A DNA stretch of 64,000 nt, from contig OZ242016.1 of assembly GCA_965204825.1 (NCBI GenBank), positions 1,249,252 to 1,313,251 on the forward strand, read 5' to 3'; not shown here. Below, a report on this DNA, generated by a model with database tools, continues. Source of the stretch: Alphaproteobacteria bacterium. GTDB taxonomy: Bacteria; Pseudomonadota; Alphaproteobacteria; Futianiales; Futianiaceae.

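Follow-up and report, generated by a model that had tools for sequence, protein, structure and literature searches.

The CE4 hydrolase, orphan ORF and GTPase

The putative CE4 deacetylase encoded in the window shares ∼73% identity over 291 aa with HP0310 of H. pylori (HpPgdA, PDB 3qbu). Within window positions 23103-25508, after its gene come a 108-aa orphan ORF, whose product begins with MCGLCG, and then a gene for a CobW/COG0523 GTPase. This trio resembles the HP0310-HP0311-HP0312 arrangement of H. pylori and looks as if it had been transplanted into the cyclic-amide island. The location of the trio in such an island supports the old suspicion that the substrate of HP0310 is a small molecule, rather than peptidoglycan.

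Accessory domains and short motifs of the Hyu proteins

Residues 67-147 of HyuB1 (window 28489-28731) form a Rad52/Mgm101-fold domain, which is joined to the hydantoinase B subunit via flexible linkers. This domain is also found C-terminally in a HyuB of different lineage in two other loci (L084/L085, 6696-8840), and as a stand-alone 142-aa protein in one of them (L084, 562-990). The linkers of many HyuB1-type proteins (P0243-P0257) include a conserved DLASASL stretch, and a 10-residue stretch resembling it is present in the low-complexity N-terminal extension of the CE4 enzyme (window 23103-23250). These similar stretches may represent a second short linear motif.

The HyuA2-like enzymes of four loci (L049, L056, L072 and L081) lack the N-terminal WFD helix and carry instead a distinct coiled-coil-like helix at the N-terminus, such as YESRIIDLERKLQEMERML or VRRYEARIAELEARLRRMEQF, together with a linker. 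Neither of the membrane-protein families Mem (4 TM) and M358 (10 TM) was found near these WFD-less genes.

Flotillins and the Mem and M358 membrane proteins

In the giant flotillin gene (30593-33409), units of 87 nt (29 aa) are repeated in tandem in two arrays, at window positions 31563-31735 and 32114-32278. Both fall within the presumed coiled-coil part of the protein, the length of which could be set by the number of repeats. Another locus (L083, 3400-10477) has M358 and Mem on either side of an operon whose products are a 175-aa orphan, PspA/IM30, a YqiJ/NfeD-like protein, a flotillin of 621 aa and a second orphan of 104 aa; this arrangement suggests that Mem and M358 are general flotillin-associated membrane proteins.

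YrdC-like gene pairs and the flanks of the island

A tandem YrdC-like gene pair is found on the megaplasmid of Variovorax paradoxus VAI-C (CP063167, 864926-893579), within an operon that also encodes an ICL/PEP-mutase lyase, two TTT solute-binding proteins, a fatty-acid-CoA ligase and a LeuCD-like dehydratase, and in which HyuAB is absent. Since V. paradoxus is a cultured species, this strain may prove tractable for finding the YrdC-like function. In six loci from Burkholderiales MAGs (L039, L040, L046, L047, L050 and L055), the pair is located between two gene blocks. One consists of photosynthesis-cluster genes, namely a UbiA-family prenyltransferase gene (possibly bchG), PucC and TspO; the other encodes an Old-Yellow-Enzyme reductase, a TauD-type dioxygenase, an amidase, a CE4 hydrolase, MmgE/PrpD and ABC proteins. 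This context would fit a connection with tetrapyrrole breakdown products of the maleimide type, without proving one.

The cyclic-amide island may once have been mobile or have undergone reshuffling. Upstream of it are two IS1595-family transposase genes (window 1832-2836 and 11221-12024), a DDE transposase fragment (48154-48498) is located directly 3' of yrdC2, and the G+C content falls to 0.54-0.57 at 10-14 kb. Between the ICL-like lyase gene and iso1 is a 78-aa ORF (21977-22213) whose GC3 is coding-like and which matches no family. Downstream of the island, an MFS transporter gene (49084-50376) precedes the nadA-nadB-nadC operon for quinolinate/NAD synthesis (50878-54470), whose proximity we judge to be coincidental. 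It is nevertheless a pyridine-ring pathway located beside amidases of the nicotinamidase superfamily.
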